A program made the translations under genes and the position numbers. A stretch of DNA of 35,156 bases, taken from positions 47,204,527-47,239,682 of the forward strand of contig NC_057718.1 of the NCBI RefSeq assembly GCF_004010195.1, written 5' to 3'. Source of the stretch: Chiloscyllium plagiosum (Eukaryota). Every line of letters starts with the position of its first letter. The stretch's first letter is position 1. Shown in pieces: positions 3,630 through 35,156 of this stretch. Under the pieces are notes generated by a model, which searched no databases, had not been told where the DNA came from, and worked only from the letters and a program-made list of their open reading frames with translations.

Positions 3630-3690
3630 GGTACCTTGCAAACAAAACTTTTACCCTTATTAAAAGCCTTGCACCCAACTTTATTTCCAG

Positions 3691-3821
3691 GTAGCGACAT
3701 AAGGGCTTTGGATGATGATTTGGATGAATGCATTAAAGAGACGGCCTCAAAACGTAAGCAGTTTCCAAGGAAGATTATTGGACACCTTGCTAGGACCATG
3801 AAAGCAGAAAGGGAATCACTA
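3691..3821 (+). CDS. NSL1: NSL1 (MIS12 kinetochore complex subunit), internal coding exon, 131 nt, phase 1 to 0
   Basis: Acceptor ttatttccAG, donor GTATGT; encodes SDIRALDDDLDECIKETASKRKQFPRKIIGHLARTMKAERESL, matching human NSL1 as recalled (SDIKVLEDQFDEIIVDIATKRKQYPRKILECVIKTIKAKQEIL). Confidence 0.93.
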
Positions 3822-11851: not shown

Positions 11852-14800
11852 AGAACTAGGAACAGGCCATTTGACCACTTGAGCCTACTTCACCTTTCAG
11901 TATATGATCCTCTATCTCAATGCCATACTCTTGATTTCTCTCCATACCCCTTGATGCCTTTAATGCTTTTTTAAAAATCTTGCTCTCGCGCTCGCTCTCG
12001 CGCTCGCTCTCGCGCTCGCTCTCGCGCTCGCTCTCGCGTTCGCTCTCGCGTTCGCTCTCGCGTTCGCTCTCGTGCTCGCTCTCGTGCTCGCTCTCGTGCT
12101 CGCTCTCGTGCTCGCGCTCGCTCTCGCTCTCGTGCTCGCGCTCGCTCTCGCTCTCGTGCTCGCTCTCGCTCTCGTGCTCGCGCTCGCTCTCGCTCTCGTG
12201 CTCGCGCTCGCTCGCTCTCTCTCTCTCGCTCGCTCTCTCGCTCACTCACGCTGATCTGGCCTCCACGGACTTCCATGGGAGTGACTTTCACAGGTTGACC
12301 GTCATCTTTTTGAAGAAATGTTTCCTTATCTCAGTTCTAAATTGCCTACCTTGTATTCTAAGACTATGACCTCTGATTCTAGATTTCCCAAACATAGGAA
12401 ACATCCTCCCTGCATCTAGTTGGTTTAGTCATTTTAGTTGGTTGATCCCTTTTTATGTGTTCACACTTCCTAAAATATCACTCTTTAAATAATGCTGTAC
12501 CTTTTTTGTTATTCACACCAAGGTGTACAATTTCACAGTTATCCATGTTCTACTGTATCTGCCATGTTTGCTTTTGCACACAACTTCTTCAAATCATCCT
12601 GAAGCCTCCTTGCATCTTCCTCTCAACTCTCGATCCCATCTAGCTTTGTGCCATTAGCAAATAGCGAAATATTACATTTGGTTCCCACATCATTTATGTA
12701 TAAATGACTTGGATGCAATATATATTTTGTGAATAGCTGAGTCTCGAGCATTGATCCCTATGGTGTACCACTAGTCACTACCTGAGATCCAGAAAAAGAT
12801 TAATTTATTCCCACAGTTTCCATATCAGTATGTTAGCCCCGATGCCACGTGCTTTAATTTTGCCTATTAATCTCTTTTTATAATAGGACCTTATCGAAAG
12901 CTTTCAGGAAATCCAAAAACACATTACCTGGTTCTCCCTTACCTCCTCTTCTAGTTCCAGCCTCAAAAAAACTCCAGTAGCTTAGTTGAGCATGTTTTCC
13001 ATGTGTTTTGTTAACACATCTTTTATAATAGATTCTAGTGTTTATACACTACTGATGTTAGGCTAACTGATCTGTCTTTTTTTTCCTCTTTCTTTTAAAC
13101 AATAGTAGGGTTACATTGCTACCCTGCAATCTATAGGAACTGATCCAGTCTATAAAGTTTTGGAAGATGACCACCAATTTACCCAATATTTCAAGGGCCA
13201 CTTCCTTTAGTACTCCAGTTACAGATTATCGGGCCCTGAGGATTTGTCAGCCTGTAACCCCATTAATTACTAATCTTTATATAACGCTGATTTTCTTAAC
13301 TTTTACTATTCCTAACTTCTCTAATATTTCTTGGAAATTATTTGTGAAGACACAACCAAAATGTGTATTCAACTCTTCTGCCATTTCTTTATTTCCCATT
13401 ATAATTCCCACTTTTGACTAAGAAATCTACATTTCTCAACGCTAATCTTTTCCTGTTCACATATTTATAGAAGATATTACAGTCAGATTTTATGTCCATA
13501 CAAGTCAGACATTATTCACCGCCTTTTCAAACTTTTTGTCCTCTTTTGAACATATGAACTAGAAGCAGGTGTATGCAATTCACTCAGTTCCACCATTAAA
13601 TATGATCGTATCCATTTTCTTGCCTGCTGTCCAGAACCCCACTTCAAGTACTAATTTAAAAATCTATCCATCCCCTTAAATGTACTCAGTCCTGGCTTCC
13701 GCCATGGCGTTAGGTTGTGAATTCTCCAGGTCTGCTGAATTCTAACTTGCTTCCAGTCTTCAGGTTTGCTGCTTTTTCTCGCAATTTGTTTCTCCTCTTT
13801 AGATCTCCCATCAGCCATAATTTATTTTGTCAGCCATAGTCGAGCCACCTTTCCTGTTCTATTTTTGTGCTGGATTGGAAAGAATAATTGTCATATATGC
13901 ATATGTTCTTTAAATATTAGCTGTTACCTATCCACTGCCAATCCTTTAACGTTTTCTCAATTTATTATCGCCAACTTGCACTTCAGGCCATCATATTTCC
14001 CTTTTATTTAGATTCAGGGCCCCAATTTCAGATTCAGTGACATGGCCCATCTTAATAAATAATTTTGTCATTTTATCATTGCTCTTCTGCAATGGACCTA
14101 GGACAACAGGAATGTTAATCCTTTCTCATTGCGTAATACCCAATCTAGGGTAGCCCGCTCTCTAGTCAGTTCTTCAAGATATTATTCTTAAAATATGTAC
14201 ACCACTAAAACACATTCACTCCAGGAAATCATCCTCTGTTATTTGCTAATTTGGTTTGCCCAATCAATGTAGATTAAAGTCACCCATGATTACAATTATA
14301 CCCTTATGGCATGCATCTCTAATCTCCTTTCTCTGTCTACAGGCAAATGCAAGAGAAAATCCCCAACATTGTTTCTGCCGTTGATGTTTCTTAGTTCCAC
14401 CTGAGCAGAATCCAAATCATTATTTTATGAGCCAATATCCTTCCTCATTGTGGGCATGGAAGATCCTTTACGAATAATGGTTCCCACACCTTCTTTCCTT
14501 ATTTGCCTGGCCTGCCTAAATATTGAATACTCCTGGATGTTCATTTCACGACCTTAGTCAGTCTGTAGTTATGCCTGTGTAATTGCAGCTTTATTATAAC
14601 TGTATATCTATTTGTGCTATTAATTCATCTGTCTTACTGCCAATGCTCCACCACATTAACATGCAGTGCCTATAATTTTGCTCATTTAACCTTATTAGTT
14701 GTCTTTATTTTGCACTATGACACCATTTGGTTCTTGTTCTTGTTTTTTCTGCCTATTTTTGTACTTTTGTCTTTGATTTCTATCCTTGGGTCTAGCATCT

Positions 14801-15310: not shown

Positions 15311-15699
15311 CTGATGGGCAGTAAACAGATGCTCAATATTGGCATGCCTCAAGAACAAGAAAGATTTTCTGTAAATTCTTTTGAAATGTAGGTGAATAAA
15401 GGCTTATTAAATATGGTTGACCCCCAGTGAGGAAGAAATGGCTTCAGGAAGATCCGACGATTGAGTTTGGCAGTAAAACTTCAAGTTAGATTATGCTTAA
15501 TTTTGGGAAAGTTTAACAGCAAGTGGTTTTTATAGCCAGATGTTTACAGCTATATAACAAATGGATTATCTCGCAGAATATTAAGTCTGTAGGCCTTTGA
15601 AGGATTTCCAAGAATGTTCAATTTGTTAATCTAATTTTTTGCAGGAGAATGTAATTGTGATGTGCAAGAACTAATGTTAATGCAATTTTGTTCTCCCAG

Positions 15700-15975
15700 C
15701 ATTTACCAACATTTATGGAGAAAGCTGAAGGACTTTTGCAAACTCTAACTCTTGTTCCCATTATGAAGCAATCCCAGACAAACAAAGCAATATTCTCAAC
15801 CTCCACAGAGATGTGTTTCCAAAATAGCAATGAACAAACTCTGCTGCTTGGAAAATCTGATGTCACTCCCATAGAAACTGAAAGACAATTGAAGAGTCGT
15901 AAGTCACACAAAAGTAAAGTACATTCTTCCATTAATCGAAAATATCCAAAGCGAAGACTGCATCTTGGTCAATAA
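15700..15975 (+). CDS. NSL1: NSL1 terminal coding exon (91 aa plus TAA)
   Basis: Branch-point-like ACTAAT ~15670, acceptor ttgttctcccAG; HLPTFMEKAEGLLQTLTLVP..KAIF..VTPIET..RKYPKRRLHL aligns to human SLPALIEQGEGFSQVLRMQP..QEVF..TTPTET..RKWYPLRPKKINL. Confidence 0.93.
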   Translation, partial: HLPTFMEKAEGLLQTLTLVPIMKQSQTNKAIFSTSTEMCFQNSNEQTLLLGKSDVTPIETERQLKSRKSHKSKVHSSINRKYPKRRLHLGQ

Positions 15976-18489: not shown

Positions 18490-19340
18490 ACTTTGAATCA
18501 AAGGCTGGATATTGCCATAAGAGGAGCTGAACAATGGCTGGTGGACTTCAATTTGGATAAATGTGCAGTGTTGCATTTGGTTCAACAAACAGGCAGGACT
18601 TCTACAATTAATGGTAGACCCTTGGTTAGTGTTGTAGAGCAGAGGGGTGTAAGGGTTCAGGTACATAATTCCTTGAAGTTTGCATCACATATAAACAGTG
18701 GTTAAGGTGTTTAGCACCTTTTATTGCTCAGTCCTTTGAGTATAGGAATTGGGAAATCATGCTGAGGTTGTACAGGACATTGATGAGGCCTCTTCTGGAA
18801 TGCTGTGTCCAATTGTCATCAACATGCTATAAGCTAGAGAGGTTCTGGATTTATCTTCTCAAAACTCGCTAACCTAAAGAGGTTTCAGAAGAGATTTAAC
18901 AGGATGTTGCTGGATATGGAAGGTTTGAGTTATATGGATAGGCTGGGACTTTTTTCATTGGAACGTAGAAGATTAAGAGGTGACCTTTTATAGAGGTTTA
19001 TAAAATGAGGGGTATAGATACAGTTAATGGTAGGTGTCTTCCCTAGAATGGGGGACTTCAGGATGAGGGAGCGTAATTTTAAGATGAGAGGAGAAAGATT
19101 TTAAAAAGTGTATGAGAGGTAACACTTTAGAGTGGTTCATATATGGGATGAATTGCCAGAGGAAGTGGTTGATGCAGGTAGTTATAATGTTTAAAAGACA
19201 TTTGGGTAGATCCATGAATAGCAAATGTTTGGAGGAATTTGGGTCAGGAGCAGGCAGGTGGGAATGGTTTAGTTTGGGAACATAGGTGGCATGGACCCGT
19301 TGGGCTGAAGGGTCTGTTTTCATGCTGTATGAATCTGACT
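18490..19340 (+). mobile_element. 5'-truncated CR1 (HER1-like) LINE
   Basis: AEQWLVDFNLDKCAVLHL, GLFSLERRRLRGDL motifs; tail GGGCTGAAGGGTCTGTTTCATGCTGTATGAATCT. Confidence 0.9.
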
Positions 19341-21042: not shown

Positions 21043-21272
21043 GAATCATAGAATCCCTACAGTGTGGAAACAGGCTGTTCGGCCCACCAAGTCCATGCCG
21101 ACCCTCTGAAGAACATTCCACTCCGACCTAACCCCCACCCTATCCCTGTAACCCTCCATTTCCTGTGGCTAATGGACCTAACCTAACTCCCTGAACACTG
21201 AGAAATTTAGCATGGCTAATCCACCGAAATTGTACGTCGTTGGACTTTGGGAGGAAATCGAATGTCCTGGCG
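21043..21272 (-). mobile_element. HE1-type SINE, 3' part
   Basis: Antisense tail GAATCATAGAATCCCTACAGTGTGGAAACAGGC and AATTTAGCATGGCTAATCCACC..TTGGACTTTGGGAGGAAA; reverse complement of ~19795-19960. Confidence 0.85.
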
Positions 21273-21429
21273 GACCATTTCCCATGGTAGGGACTCTAAA
21301 ATAATGGCATGTAATGGCTCAAATCTTGGAATGTTTGTACCATTGAAATCTGGACTTGAGTTCAGAGAAGTATCAGGATCCAGCAGAAGACCTGCCACAA
21401 CCTTGTGCTATAGATGTCCAGGAAATTTA

Positions 21430-21798
21430 TGATTCGGAGATGCCAGTGTTGGACTGGGGTGTACAAAGTTAAAAATCACACAAACCAGGTTATAGTCCAA
21501 CAGGTTTAATTGGAAGCACACTAGCTTTCGGAGCGATGCTCCTTCAGGTGATTGTGGAGGGCTCGATCGTAACAGAATTTATAGCAATAATTTGCTGTGT
21601 GATGTAACTGAAATTATACATTGAAGAATTGATTGATTCTTCAATGTATAATTTCAGTTACATCACACTGCAAATTTTTGCTATAAATTCTGTTATGATC
21701 GAGCCCTCCATAATCACCTGATGAAGGAGCGTCGCTCCGAAAGCTAGTATGCTTCCAATTAAACCTGTTGGACTATAACTGGTGTTGTGATTTTTAAC
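21430..21798 (-). mobile_element. Penelope-like element remnant: inverted pseudo-LTR pair with a 38-nt tail and hammerhead motifs
   Basis: ~162-bp inverted arms 21468-21629 and 21636-21798; unpaired extension 21430-21467; direct repeat CAGGAAATTTA at 21419-21429 and 21799-21809. Confidence 0.8.
21715..21749 (+). ncRNA. Minimal type-I hammerhead ribozyme motif
   Basis: CAC-CTGATGA-A-GGAGC-gtc-GCTCC-GAAAGCT-A-GTA: conserved core CUGAUGA/GAAA, 5-bp stem II, palindromic AGCU stem III. Confidence 0.7.
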
Positions 21799-22097
21799 CA
21801 GGAAATTTAAACTTCCATTGTACATCCTTTACAACCTTGATCAGTGTGTCAAGGACTTGGACTAGACTTGTGGAACTTACAATGCAAAAGTAACACTGTT
21901 TACACTTGATATAATTCAGATTAACCATTGTGACTGAACTGAATACTATAACTGACACTGCCAATACTCACTGACCCAACTAACCCTACCACAACACTCT
22001 CTCTAAGCTGTAGAAGCAAAGTAAACCATCCCACTGAGTCTATTCCACCATTCAATGAGATTATGGCTGATCTGAATATCTTTAGCTCTATTCTCCT

Positions 22098-23302
22098 TCT
22101 TGATTAATCATGTCACAAAGAGGATTGATGAGGGCAGAGAGGTGGACATGATCCATGTGGACTTCAATAAGGTGTTTGACAAGTTTCCCTTTGCTACACT
22201 GGTTAGTAAGGTTAGATCTCATGGGATACTGAGACAACTAGCCATTTGGATATGGAACTGGTGGAGAGTTGCTTTTCGGACTGGGAACCTGTGACTAGTG
22301 CCACAGGAATCGGCGCTGGGTCCACTACTTTTCGTCATTTATATAAATGATTTGGATATAAACATAGGGGGTATAATTAATAAGTTTGCAGATGACACCA
22401 AAATTGAAGGTATAGTGGACAGCGAAGAAGGTTACCTCGGAGTACAACGGGATCTTGATCTTGGCGTACAACGGGTCAATACACTGAAGAGTGGCAGATG
22501 GAGTTTAATTTAGATAAATGCACGGTGCTGCATTTTGGAAAAGCAAATCTTAGCAGGACTTATACATTTAATGGTAAGGTCCTAGCGAGTGTTGCTGAAC
22601 AAAGAGACCTTGGAGTGTAGGTTCATAATTCCTTGAAAGTAGAGTCACCGATAGATAGGATAGTGAAGGCGGCGTTTGGTATGCTTTCCTTTATTGGTCA
22701 GAATATTGAGTACAGGAGTAGGGAGGTCATGTTGCAGCTGTACAGGACGTTGGTTAGGCCACTTTTGGAATATTGCATGCAACTCTGGTTTCCTACCTAT
22801 CAGAAGGATGTTGTGAAACTTGAAAGGGTTCAGAAAAGATTTACAAGGATGTTGTCAGAATTGGAGGATCTGAGCTAAAGGGAGAGGCTGAATCAGCTGG
22901 GGCTGTTTTACCTGGAGTGTCAGAGGCTGACCTTACAGAGGTTTATAAAATCATGAGGGGCATGTATAGGATAAATAGACACAGTCTTTTCCCAGGGGTG
23001 AGGGAGTCCAGAACTACAGGACATAGGTTTAGGGTAAGAGGGGAAAGATACAAAAGGAACGTATGGAGCAACTTTTTCACATAGAGGGTGGTGTGTGTAT
23101 GGAATGAGCTGCCAGAGGAAGTGGTGGAGGCTGCTACAATTGCAGCATTTAAAAGGCATCTGGATATGAATAGGAATGGTTTAGAGGGATATGGATCAAG
23201 TGCTGGAAAATGGGACTAGATTAGGTTAGGATAGCTGGTCGGCATGGATGAGTTGGACCAAGGGATCTGTTTCCATGCTGTACATCTCCATGACTCTGTG
23301 AC
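22098..23302 (+). mobile_element. 5'-truncated CR1 (HER1-like) LINE, relatively young
   Basis: DFNKVFDK, PQESALGPLLFVIYINDLD, KFADDTKI, LYRTLVRPLLEYC, KLERVQKRFTRM; tail CTGTTTCCATGCTGTACATCTCCATGACTCT. Confidence 0.95.
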
Positions 23303-24782: not shown

Positions 24783-24972
24783 TACAGAGTCAGACAGCAT
24801 GAATCAGACCCTTTGATCCAACTCGTCCACACCAATTATACATTTCAATCTGACCTAGTTCCATTTGCCAACATTTGGCCCATATCCTTCTAAATCCTTC
24901 CTATTCATATACCTACCCAGATGCCTTTTAAATATTATATTCGTACCAACCTCCACCACTTTTTCCAGCAGC
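24783..24972 (-). mobile_element. CR1 3'-end fragment
   Basis: ACAGCATGAATCAGACCCTTTGATCCAACTCGTCCA..CCCATATCCTTCTAAA..CCTCCACCACTT is the reverse complement of the 23110-23290 tail. Confidence 0.85.
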
Positions 24973-25496
24973 CCAACTTCTCAAAAAAGAAAAATATTTG
25001 CTTTTTCTAAATCTGTACAAGCTGGATAGCTTGCACCAAACAGAGCCAGGCCTCAGTTCCTTGCAGGGCTTTTTTGCTAGTGGGTAGGGGAGACTTTAAA
25101 ATAAATTAGGTGGGTTGTGGGAGCCAGGAGAGAATATTAAACAGGAATACTAAGGTGCACAAGAAATTGGGAAAGACAATGCCACAACAGAATAGTAAGT
25201 TAATAGGCAAAGTTGAAATAGGGGAGAAATCAAAACATTCTAAACCAAGTTTCCATTGCGAGTATATAAGATTGCTGAGTTATTGGTGCAGACTGCCATC
25301 TGGATTTATAACGTTGTGGATACCATTATGACAGCAGGCCAAAATGAATTAGCCTCTATATCACTGGATGTGCAGCATATTGAATAGTTTAATTACACTG
25401 ATGCATTGCCCTATCGCTCCTAACTAGACTTCTAAGAATAATATCAGACTCCACGTGTATAACTTATACAGAAATTAACATATTGTTAATATATAT

Positions 25497-27299: not shown

Positions 27300-28437
27300 C
27301 AGGGAAAAATATACATTTTGAGGCAACAAGTGAGGTTTGATAACTGAACAGACCCCATTATACTTTGGCAGAAAGACCTTAGATGGTTGTCTTTCCCCAC
27401 TGCATCTTGGCAGCAGTTGCCCCAAGCTTTAATGCATAATCCAGGGCCTTGGAATGTGCTGGTCTGCAACACGTGGTTGGGGTCAACTTTTTACAGAGGA
27501 ACCTCGATTATCCAAATATCAATTATCCAAATATCGGATTATGCGAAGGAGATCTCGAGGTCCTGATAGAAACATTATATCAAAGACATGTTTCCAACAC
27601 TGATTGCATCTTTTATTTACAGTGATTAAATGCTGCCGAGTACAGTCCTGAACTAAGGAGAGGCCAGGCACCATCTCCACATTAACTGACCGCCCGCAGT
27701 CTCTCTCTCTCGCCCCCCCTCCCCCCTCACACTTTCCCTGGAGTTCTACACAGGCACGTACCCTGAAACCCCCCTTCTCCAGATAATCTCTCCAACATTG
27801 TCCTGTACAGGGCAAAGGTGGAACCTGTCAAAAAGTTGTAGTAAAATGTGCTATTTGGAGACTCATCTCTCAAAAGGCAGCAGCAGCAGTCTTGTTGGTG
27901 TCCAGTCCAACTGCCACGGAGACGGGGCAGGTGCATGGGGGTGGGGGGGGTGGACAGGGGGCAGTGTTGGACTGGTTTGGGGAACAGGCGCAGTAGGGGG
28001 GGTCACGCACAGTGTGCTGCTGCCTAGTCTCTTGAACAGGGTGTGGACTTAACAGAAAACTCCGAGCCCCAGCGGAAAGGCATTGAATCAATTAACTGAA
28101 TAATCAATTATCCGAACGAAATAGTGCCTGCCCATCTCGTTCGGATAATTGAGGTTCCTCTGTACTCTAGAAGGCCAACATGTTTCAGGTAGACCAATGA
28201 GCATCTTTCACAGAGTTGATGGTCGTCCAAGCGCAGTTAATGTGTGTCTTGGAGTGTGTCCCGGGAAACAGGCTGCAGAGTCCTACATCACAGAACTGCT
28301 TGCAATGAAAGTTAACAAAAACCACTGCATCTTTCTTCTAACCTTCTTTGCAAAGGTGCATTCCAGACAGAGGTGTGTGACAGTCTCTCCGCTCAGCTGC
28401 TTGGAGGGAAGTGAGCAGTTCTGGAGGGAGTCCAGAC
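27300..28437 (-). mobile_element. Tx1/L1-clade LINE ORF2 3' part, split by a MITE and cut by the gap
   Basis: Minus strand reads ETVTHLCLECTFAKKV (zf-RVT-like knuckle), FPGTHSKTHINCAWTTINSVKDAHWST, then after the MITE CCRPAHSKALDYALKLGATAAKMQWGKTTI*. Confidence 0.75.
27494..28162. mobile_element. Tigger/pogo-type (Tc1/mariner superfamily) non-autonomous MITE, 669 bp
   Basis: TIRs CAGAGGAACCTCGATTATCCAAA / TTCGGATAATTGAGGTTCCTCTG (21 of 23 match), TA on both sides (27492-27493, 28163-28164). Confidence 0.9.
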
Positions 28438-28937
28438 NNNNNNNNNNNNNNNNNNNNNNNNNNNNNNNNNNNNNNNNNNNNNNNNNNNNNNNNNNNNNNN
28501 NNNNNNNNNNNNNNNNNNNNNNNNNNNNNNNNNNNNNNNNNNNNNNNNNNNNNNNNNNNNNNNNNNNNNNNNNNNNNNNNNNNNNNNNNNNNNNNNNNNN
28601 NNNNNNNNNNNNNNNNNNNNNNNNNNNNNNNNNNNNNNNNNNNNNNNNNNNNNNNNNNNNNNNNNNNNNNNNNNNNNNNNNNNNNNNNNNNNNNNNNNNN
28701 NNNNNNNNNNNNNNNNNNNNNNNNNNNNNNNNNNNNNNNNNNNNNNNNNNNNNNNNNNNNNNNNNNNNNNNNNNNNNNNNNNNNNNNNNNNNNNNNNNNN
28801 NNNNNNNNNNNNNNNNNNNNNNNNNNNNNNNNNNNNNNNNNNNNNNNNNNNNNNNNNNNNNNNNNNNNNNNNNNNNNNNNNNNNNNNNNNNNNNNNNNNN
28901 NNNNNNNNNNNNNNNNNNNNNNNNNNNNNNNNNNNNN
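28438..28937. other. Assembly gap, 500 N
   Basis: Run of exactly 500 N, probably a fixed-size scaffolding gap. Confidence 0.99.
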
Positions 28938-29127
28938 AGCACAGCAGGTCAGGCAGCATCCGAGGAGCAGGAATGATTCAACTTTCCTGATGAAGGGTTT
29001 TTGCACGAAACATCGATTTTCCTGCTCCTCGGATGCTGCCTGACTTGCTGTGCTTTTCCAGCACCATTCTAATCTTGAATTTAATCTTGACTCTAATCTC
29101 CAGCATCTGCAGTACTCACTTTCGCCT
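28938..29127 (+). mobile_element. Fold-back Penelope-related short element with a degenerate hammerhead motif in its loop
   Basis: 36-bp arms 28938-28973 and 29019-29054; loop contains CTGATGA-A-GGGT-TTTT-GCAC-GAAACATC. Confidence 0.7.
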
Positions 29128-29644
29128 TTTAATAAACTACCGATGCACCGAAAAATTTGACAACATTCTGTGCAAGGAAACCAGAAGGAACAATGAGTGT
29201 GTGTGTATATATCTATATATTATATATCTTCCTATATGAAGTTGACTTTTTAATTTTAAATAACATCAACGAACGTCGTTAAATAGACACGACATTTTTA
29301 AAAAAGTTATGAACATGTAAGGCCGATTCACAAAATAAAAATGAACATGCCCTCCGGTATTTGAGTGCTTTAGGGTGCTCATAACCATGACATCACTTTC
29401 ACAGTAGTTATTTTGAGTGATTTTACAGTTATTATGTGAAGAATCAGTTCCGGGCATGATTAATTCCATGTTACTCTTTATCCTTTCCGAGGGAGTCATT
29501 TACTTGAGAGTCTGAAACAATGACCTGTCACTCAACTGTTTCCAAATAACCCCGGCGCTCTAGTTGCCTGAGAGTTTAATGTGGAATATAGCGACATTTT
29601 CGAGCAAATAAAGTTTAGACTTCATACTTGCAGTAAATCAAAAG

Positions 29645-34330: not shown

Positions 34331-35156
34331 GTAGAGTCATAGAGATGTACAGCATGGAAACAGACCCTTCGGTCCAACCTGTCCATGCCGACCAGATATC
34401 CCAACCCAATCCACTCCCACCTGCCAGCACCTTGCCCATATCCCTCCAAACCCTTCCTATTCATATACCCATCCAAATGCCTCTTAAATGCTGCAATTGT
34501 ACCAGCCTCCACCTCATCCTCTGGCAGCTCATTCCATACACGTACCACCCTTTGCGTGAAAATGTTGCCCCTTAGGTCTCTTTTATATCTTTCCCCTCTC
34601 ACACTAAACCTATACCCTCCAGTTCTGGACTCCCGACCTCAGGGAAAAGACTTTGTCTATTTATCCTATCCATGCCCCTCATAATTTTCTAAACCTGTAT
34701 AAGGTCACCCATCAGCCTCCGACGCTCCAGAGAAAACAGCCCCAGCCTGTTCAGCCTCTCCCTGTAGCTTAGATCCTCCAACCCTTGCAACATCCTTGTA
34801 AATCTTTTCTGAACCCTTTCAAGTTTCACAACATCTTTTCCGATAGGAAGGAGACCAGAATTACACGCAATATTCCAACAGTGGCCTAACCAATGTCCTG
34901 TACAGCCACAACATGACCTCCTAACTCCTGTACTCAATACTCTGACCAATAAAGGAAAGCATACCAAATGTCTTCCTCACTATCCTATCTACCTGTAACT
35001 TCACTTTCAAGGAGCTGTGAACCTGCACTCCAAGGTCTCTTTGTTCAGCAACACTCCCTAGGACCTTACTATTAAGTGTATAAGTCCTGCTAAGATTTGC
35101 TTTCCCAAAATGCAGCACCGCGCATTTATCTGAATTAAACTCCATCTGCCACTTCT
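34331..35156 (-). mobile_element. Young CR1 (HER1-like) LINE in BATF3 intron 2, running off the window
   Basis: Minus ORFs MEFNSDKCAVLHFGKAN.., KLERVQKRFTRML..GLFSLERRRL, FTQRVVRVWNELP; antisense tail AGAGTCATAGAGATGTACAGCATGGAAACAGACCC. Confidence 0.95.

Follow-up and report, generated by a model that had tools for sequence, protein, structure and literature searches.

A probable dead-on-arrival Penelope-like element insertion in Chiloscyllium plagiosum, built of two truncated 3' ends standing head to head

A 368-bp palindromic insert in the window analysed here, a 35,156-nucleotide stretch of Chiloscyllium plagiosum DNA, is with high probability a dead-on-arrival insertion of an endonuclease-bearing (EN+) Penelope-like element (PLE), consisting of two 5'-truncated 3' ends joined head to head and made in one event after the split from two relatives. 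On its structure the insert very probably belongs among the truncated EN+ PLEs, and it was most likely built during one insertion event and not copied from a ready-made palindrome. The wider family to which the two ends belong is very abundant in all three species, and most of its copies have an intact minimal hammerhead, in contrast to the inserted copy, where both arms are damaged.

Results

Anatomy of the insert

The insert occupies 21430-21797, between two copies of a 12-bp target duplication (Table 1). The direct repeat, CCAGGAAATTTA, is exact, and a 12-mer match of this kind would be expected by chance with a probability of ~4 x 10^-5 when 20 x 20 boundary positions are allowed. The initial annotation had given 369 bp and a duplication of 11-12 bp; 369 bp with 11 bp is the same junction shifted by one base, and we prefer 368 bp with 12 bp. 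The duplication is 67% AT and there is no A run at either end of the insert. Within it, inverted arms at 21468-21629 (162 nt) and 21636-21798 can be aligned over 160 columns, of which 153 are paired and 7 mismatched, with three gaps besides (1, 1 and 3 nt); the arm length first reported is correct, while the description 'near-perfect' is slightly generous at ~96% of paired columns. The 38-nt unpaired extension noted on one side is found at 21430-21467, where the bases have no partner in the arm alignment, and the first 16 bases of the insert differ from the reverse complement of its last 16. With arms, tail and direct repeat all confirmed in the window, the palindromic insertion is real, and its head-to-head arms and 38-nt tail agree with the Penelope-type inverted ends proposed at the outset. 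No reading frame is open through either arm. On folding energy the small hairpin of the 38-nt tail was rejected as a special signal, since it lacks significance (z -0.93) and 41 of 200 shuffled versions are at least as stable.

Table 1. Positions of the parts of the insert within the window
Feature	Position	Strand	Basis or remark
Left copy of the target-site duplication	21418..21429	.	exact repeat; present once where the site is empty (contigs from organisms B and C); last base matches the family tail end as well
38-nt 'tail', outermost 3' end of the left copy	21430..21467	-	no partner bases when the arms are aligned
Left arm, 5'-truncated family end including the apparent loop 21630-21635	21468..21635	- (sense)	arm alignment and RNA reads through 21635
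Left minimal hammerhead motif, stem I CAC/GTG	21519..21550	-	3-nt deletion after 21543 interrupts the core
Right arm, 5'-truncated family end without tail	21636..21797	+ (sense)	arm alignment
Right minimal type I hammerhead motif	21715..21749	+	stem I down to 2 bp through A21749
Hexamer ATTAAA, a poly(A) signal (AATAAA when the family allele A21759 is present)	21758..21763	+	mirror copy 21505-21510, minus strand
Site of non-templated A runs in family RNA reads	21775..21778	+	mirror position 21490; then a GT/T-rich stretch 21780-21795
Right copy of the target-site duplication	21798..21809	.	exact repeat; first base also fits family sequence

Empty and filled sites in three species

The stretch 21230-22010 was compared with three DNA runs, of which 84, 85 and 64% was covered, giving 35,206, 39,275 and 36,144 contigs, and with one RNA run, X21 (3,143 matching reads from 2% of the run). 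In each of the relatives B and C, one contig joins 21417 directly to 21798 at single-copy depth, skipping 380 bases, which is the 368 bp of the insert plus one 12-bp copy of the repeat. In record 1 of X10 (organism C) bases 26-210 correspond to 21230-21417 and bases 211-423 to 21798-22010, and record 16 of X7 (organism B) contains the same empty site (bases 272-459 and 59-271). Looking for an empty site with a single copy of the repeat in related species had been recommended at the start, and finding it in two other species proves that the direct repeat is a target-site duplication. The site is filled in X2 (organism A, the window's own species), where the two junctions are spanned at flank depth by records 8 and 15, which show 0 and 1 differences; among the 24 pieces listed of 112,876, none is an empty allele of organism A.

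Because the site is empty in both relatives and filled in organism A, we place the insertion after the split from these two. The arms have diverged from each other at 7 of 160 positions (4.4%) and the flanks from those of the two relatives at 15 of 401 (3.7%) and 19 of 398 (4.8%); these divergences, which are small counts, would fit an insertion near the species split with arms that were identical at birth.

The centre of the palindrome

The six bases 21630-21635, originally taken for a loop, turn out to be family sequence of the left arm: 196 RNA reads cross them, with an agreement of 0.92. At the centre of the left arm, 196 of ~236 RNA reads continue into upstream family sequence, as do 288 of ~300 at the centre of the right arm, and it is because reads pass through 21630-21635 into that upstream sequence that we assign the apparent loop to the left copy. 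The truncation points of the two copies are therefore 6 nt apart, the left copy being 6 nt longer, and on a plain reading they are joined with no microhomology. Both copies end 82-88 nt upstream of the hammerhead core and are longer than the common family stubs, since 13 of the 15 family joints listed (448 in total) run into the right arm at 21712-21716, a short way upstream of the core. Several of the joints listed begin or end at the private differences 21483, 21519 and 21711, their positions being partly alignment artefacts, and the true joint edge may lie a few bases further upstream, as private base 21711 can halt the alignments.

Two minimal hammerhead motifs, both damaged

The motif of the plus arm comprises CTGATGA (21718-24), an extra A (21725), a stem II of 5 bp, GGAGC/GCTCC (21726-38), GAAA (21739-42), GCTA (21743-46) and the palindromic AGCT (21742-45), with a predicted cut after A21746. 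Its letters are as first read, including the mutated stem I, CAC/GTA, which is left with two pairs only owing to A21749. The minus-arm motif likewise bears out the initial description, with an intact CAC/GTG stem I and a first box that is short of 3 nt after 21543, a deletion through which the left arm fails the first catalytic box; 136 of the 326 RNA reads over the left motif contain the three bases deleted there. The free fold of the plus-arm motif is predicted to form stem II only.

A loose core pattern occurs four times in the window, where 0.72 occurrences would be expected, and none of 100 shuffled versions has as many; two of the four, at 21718 and 28987, lie within inverted repeats. 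The search with RNA family models that had been suggested for the hammerhead returned no such match: of seven Rfam matches at E<=1, none is to a hammerhead, and six are to miRNA-hairpin models under gathering scores, which we rejected as reflecting the hairpin only. Rfam hammerhead models expect a helix III, which is absent from the minimal motif here. Also rejected was an ORF starting at an ATG within the hammerhead core, as its frame ends after 8 codons.

The whole insert is predicted to fold at -268 kcal/mol, in agreement with the long hairpin initially foreseen for a transcript. It is unlikely that the ribozyme works in the inserted copy, because each strand has one damaged sense motif and the antisense arm would be transcribed first. 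In read-through RNA the one hammerhead in sense orientation would then be trapped in the predicted hairpin. The ends of RNA reads pile up neither at the predicted cut nor elsewhere, which says nothing either way, since a poly(A)-selected library would lose both products.

Abundance and form of the family

In each of the three species the hammerhead is covered 1.1-1.25 x 10^5 times as deeply as the flanks, a figure that is summed contig depth and not a calibrated copy number. Depth is maximal at the 3' end of the family and lower upstream of the hammerhead, where a subfamily difference at 21690-21712 also lowers it. There are two recurrent 3' ends. The first, at 21429-36, is the tail end, where 887, 899 and 808 contigs in the three DNA runs exit the family before 21429 into AT-rich unrelated flanks; the second is marked by a loose-end consensus before 21484 (301 and 308 contigs), which turns AT-rich at ~21461-68.

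A family consensus lacking the catalytic core had been named as grounds for abandoning the hammerhead assignment. The loose-end consensus behind 21519 (322, 384 and 321 contigs; agreement 0.67-0.70) instead reads through CTGATGA in all three species, and at 21749 the family letter G makes up 76, 80 and 88% of the depth across the DNA runs, so that the minimal hammerhead first proposed is intact as a family form across the three species. The plus-arm motif of the insert has both boxes, the extra base between 9 and 10.1, the G10.1-C11.1 pair and the palindromic 15.2-16.2 (21718-21746). The common family alleles behind the cut, A21749G and a 2-nt loss at 21748, both give GTG, and the sole variable position listed in the stem II region is 21731 in the loop (among 40 listed of 68, with letters unlinked per position).

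Two minor variants are common to both arms of the insert, C21639/G21626 and C21671/G21594, at positions where the family has T in 91-100% and 73-93% of DNA depth, respectively. The sharing points to one template or one source locus for the two arms. None of the 107 ORFs of at least 66 aa in the window matches RT or GIY-YIG families by Pfam. A 19-nt arm pattern has no match in viral contigs, and its two matches in metagenome contigs were set aside as chance, with little or no extension beyond the pattern.

A probable poly(A) site behind the hammerhead

In the RNA run X21, of which 2% was read, A runs or mirror T runs are present in 903 of the 3,143 family reads (332 + 410 + 161): 742 reads have an A run behind 21775 or 21778, and 161 have a mirror T run before 21490. 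The A-run site is 29-32 nt behind the predicted cut and 12-15 nt behind the ATTAAA at 21758-63. Of the 20 template bases that start at 21776, 3 are A, so that no A-rich stretch follows the site, and no matching A-run loose end occurs among the 18 listed for the DNA runs. ATTAAA and AATAAA are established poly(A) signal hexamers. The A at 21759 that changes the former into the latter is found in 44, 43 and 9% in the DNA runs and in 194 of 1,004 RNA reads. Over the arms 93-97% of RNA reads are sense, compared to 54:46 over the tail, and RNA depth on the right arm goes from ~1,010 to ~275 across the A-run site. In its available text, PMC7140322 names both hexamers.

The A-run reads come from family copies and not from the inserted locus; X21 has 0 reads on the locus flanks and 89 of 3,143 reads that are at least 99% alike, numbers that, in 2% of a run, neither support nor exclude expression of the locus. 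No RNA data set is listed as containing the stretch, which has no bearing on whether it is expressed. We consider it likely that the A runs mark true polyadenylation in some family copies, on RNA evidence from one run of one sample, a single-cell oligo-dT library in which few or many loci may be the source of the reads.

Surroundings in the window

The insert is ~5.5 kb downstream of the end, at 15975, of what is probably the last exon of NSL1 (15697-15975, +; a weak sole match, E 0.81); an NSL1 (Mis14) kinetochore exon at ~3680-3820 (+) matches Pfam Mis14 with E 1.6e-8. A second, unrelated hammerhead family is present at 28938-29125, with its core at 28987-29014 (+), a decayed stem II, 36-nt arms (28938-28973 and 29019-29054) that are 97% complementary, and a longer 3' extension. 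Its left arm meets the assembly gap 28438-28937, and there is no A(A/T)TAAA within ~110 nt behind its motif, the first being at 29131. Inverted repeats of 25 nt that start with TA lie 623 nt apart (27492-27516 and 28140-28164), with a sub-terminal 50-nt palindrome at 28104-28152; we take the 27492-28164 element to resemble a DNA element of the Tc1/mariner or Tigger type. The window also contains five decayed LINE-like 3'-end fragments, 64-86% alike (559-2017, 18527-19336, 22076-23297, 24794-24975 and 34333-35156), which have no Pfam match and are presumably of the CR1/L2 type, and a CT/CG-rich tandem array of 12-nt period and ~350 bp (11931-12288).

Discussion

In the model that we favour, the enzyme of the element would have acted in trans, nicking both strands 12 bp apart at an AT-rich site and leaving the duplication that is observed. 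From each nick, reverse transcription would then have started at an internal position of the RNA, in one case where the tail ends and in the other 38 nt further in, as suggested by the in vitro behaviour of an Anolis PLE, and this would have yielded the one arm with a tail and the one without that the two ends display. Synthesis of both cDNAs would have ended 82-88 nt upstream of the core, the template probably being a single RNA or RNAs of one source locus, and the truncated ends of the cDNAs would have been joined by a route that left no microhomology at the observed junction. Afterwards the arms, presumably identical at birth, would have decayed independently, with neither hammerhead likely to cut.

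As to how the ends were joined, we see an even chance that two target-primed cDNAs were involved, and consider the fold-back of one cDNA with self-priming, as proposed in the accessible part of PMC3846280, the less probable though still serious candidate. Fold-back is the better explanation of the near-symmetry of the insert than two primed cDNAs, and an offset of 6 nt is unlikely for two fully independent cDNAs, which favours either fold-back or a shared RNA 5' end.

The layout can be compared with that of PLEs described elsewhere, as far as the available text of the papers cited here goes. In rotifers, PLE insertions have head-to-head inverted pLTRs, a 31-bp tail and 8-10-bp TSDs (Arkhipova et al. 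2013, PMC3846280), and across PLE clades an inverted 5'-truncated copy is found together with a 30-40-bp tail (Craig et al. 2021, PMC8557442). The insert resembles these EN+ PLE units in its head-to-head truncated copy, its one-sided tail in the 30-40-nt range, its one TSD and the empty site with a single TSD copy (PMC3846280, PMC8557442). It differs from them in that both copies are cut back into the terminal repeat, with no ORF left, and in a centre with neither an internal palindrome nor microhomology; its TSD is 12 bp, as opposed to 8-10 bp in the rotifer cases (PMC3846280).

According to the accessible text of Frangieh et al. 2024 (PMC11167929), the protein of the Anolis Poseidon PLE (PAc) nicks and extends both strands at AT-rich sites in vitro, reverse transcription starts at two internal sites that bound the tail, and the hammerhead is protein-assisted and dispensable for insertion in vitro. 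The likeness to PAc includes two internal 3' end points around the tail, an AT-rich target with ATT, and a hammerhead shortly upstream (PMC11167929). From the predicted cut to the tail end there are 92 nt here, while for PAc a start at +111-118 and a cut at +26 give 85-92 nt, a comparison in which either PAc start may be meant (PMC11167929). Unlike in PAc, where the ORF starts in the hammerhead (PMC11167929), no frame is open here from the hammerhead through the tail, and the tail hairpin is not significant.

Metazoan PLEs carry minimal hammerheads (min-HHRs) both as solo motifs and as opposite-strand pairs 100-700 bp apart (Cervera and de la Pena 2014, PMC4209133, in the portion available), and cleavage of dimers by Lunse et al. 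is recounted in the accessible text of a review (PMC6765202). The motif here is like the min-HHR in having both catalytic boxes, the extra base between 9 and 10.1, G10.1-C11.1, the palindromic 15.2-16.2 and no helix III (PMC4209133). Helix II and helix I of the family are 5 and 3 bp long, whereas those of the Schistosoma families are 7-8 and 4-5 bp (PMC4209133), and in contrast to the min-HHR both motifs of the inserted copy are damaged. Animal non-LTR retrozymes, as far as the accessible text on them describes (bioRxiv 10.64898/2026.07.22.740005), are likewise non-coding, ~300-400 bp long and PLE-derived, with a type I hammerhead. They are head-to-tail tandem units with a hammerhead in each (bioRxiv 10.64898/2026.07.22.740005), whereas the insert consists of one head-to-head pair, tailed on one side and framed by a TSD, and the window contains no tandem copy of the insert unit.

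The most durable of the alternatives, which we nevertheless regard as improbable, is that a non-autonomous palindromic PLE derivative was transcribed as a hairpin and retrotransposed ready-made, the insert being a daughter copy. The initial annotation had spoken of retrotransposition as one unit; a single event with one TSD is upheld, but the copying of a whole ready-made palindrome is not, as reads at the centre continue upstream. One TSD does frame the whole structure, and the minor variants shared by both arms would be expected of a ready-made unit, but one template explains them equally well. Some other inverted family units do appear to have been re-amplified, or may have been, since the eight junction fillers whose depth was calculated, from the 12 listed, are at 9-51 times single-copy depth; however, the 11 left-to-right fillers listed (from 12 listed of 585) all differ from one another, and no contig spanning the centre of the inserted copy is among the 24 pieces listed of 112,876. 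The arm divergence, moreover, matches the age given by the empty site, so that no earlier history is needed. One family junction in organism A, at ~51 times single-copy depth, has a 23-nt filler that is itself a small inverted repeat, and it is a candidate for an inverted unit that was amplified whole.

Very little probability attaches to two back-to-back insertions, to an inverted duplication that arose locally at a later time, or to a fold-back error of the assembly. Assembly can create false palindromes, and none of the pieces listed covers the whole stretch, but a single TSD surrounds both arms, the empty site is clean, both junctions are found in an independent run with 0-1 differences, and differences at 7 positions plus 3 gaps between the arms are not what an artefact would be expected to give. 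Least credible of all is a DNA transposon of the MITE or fold-back kind, bounded by long terminal inverted repeats and resembling a hammerhead only by accident. Such an element would account for a long, non-coding, TSD-flanked inverted repeat but not for ends that are not inverted copies of each other with 38 nt outside the repeat on one side, for a family depth that drops from the 3' end toward the centre, for centres that vary and arms that extend upstream in other copies, or for core letters and a stem I that are intact in most of the family.

Taken as a single insertion, the dead-on-arrival PLE copy described here is ordinary for its class, and its layout has already been described for Penelope-type elements. 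It is a footprint of the step by which inverted PLE ends are built and, as a clean insertion with a proven empty site, is usable as a presence/absence marker among three related species.

The sole part of possibly wider weight is the probable poly(A) site. We found no published description of a poly(A) site behind a PLE hammerhead in a search outside of which most subscription PLE papers lie; the available text of PMC2377424 (Schostak et al. 2008) has 0 occurrences of 'polyadenyl', and that of PMC12031113 and PMC7140322 has nothing on a pLTR poly(A) site. The position of the site between the predicted cut and the two insertion end points suggests a model, tentative and in our judgement rather unlikely, in which the 3' module is a functional cassette of a cut site, a poly(A) site 29-32 nt behind it, and two reverse transcription starts ~20 and 60 nt further on. 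If this were true, polyadenylated RNA would lack both starts and would not be a template, and only read-through RNA would be copied; the lack of a poly(A) tail in PLE copies would thereby be explained, and the ribozyme cut would strip the tail from the mRNA. With ~10^5 copies, the family would in addition be a rich source of poly(A) sites for host transcripts. It is a lead worth following, for if the poly(A) signal were to recur in other runs and in other PLE families, it would assign the ribozyme a role that can be tested and would explain why priming is internal.
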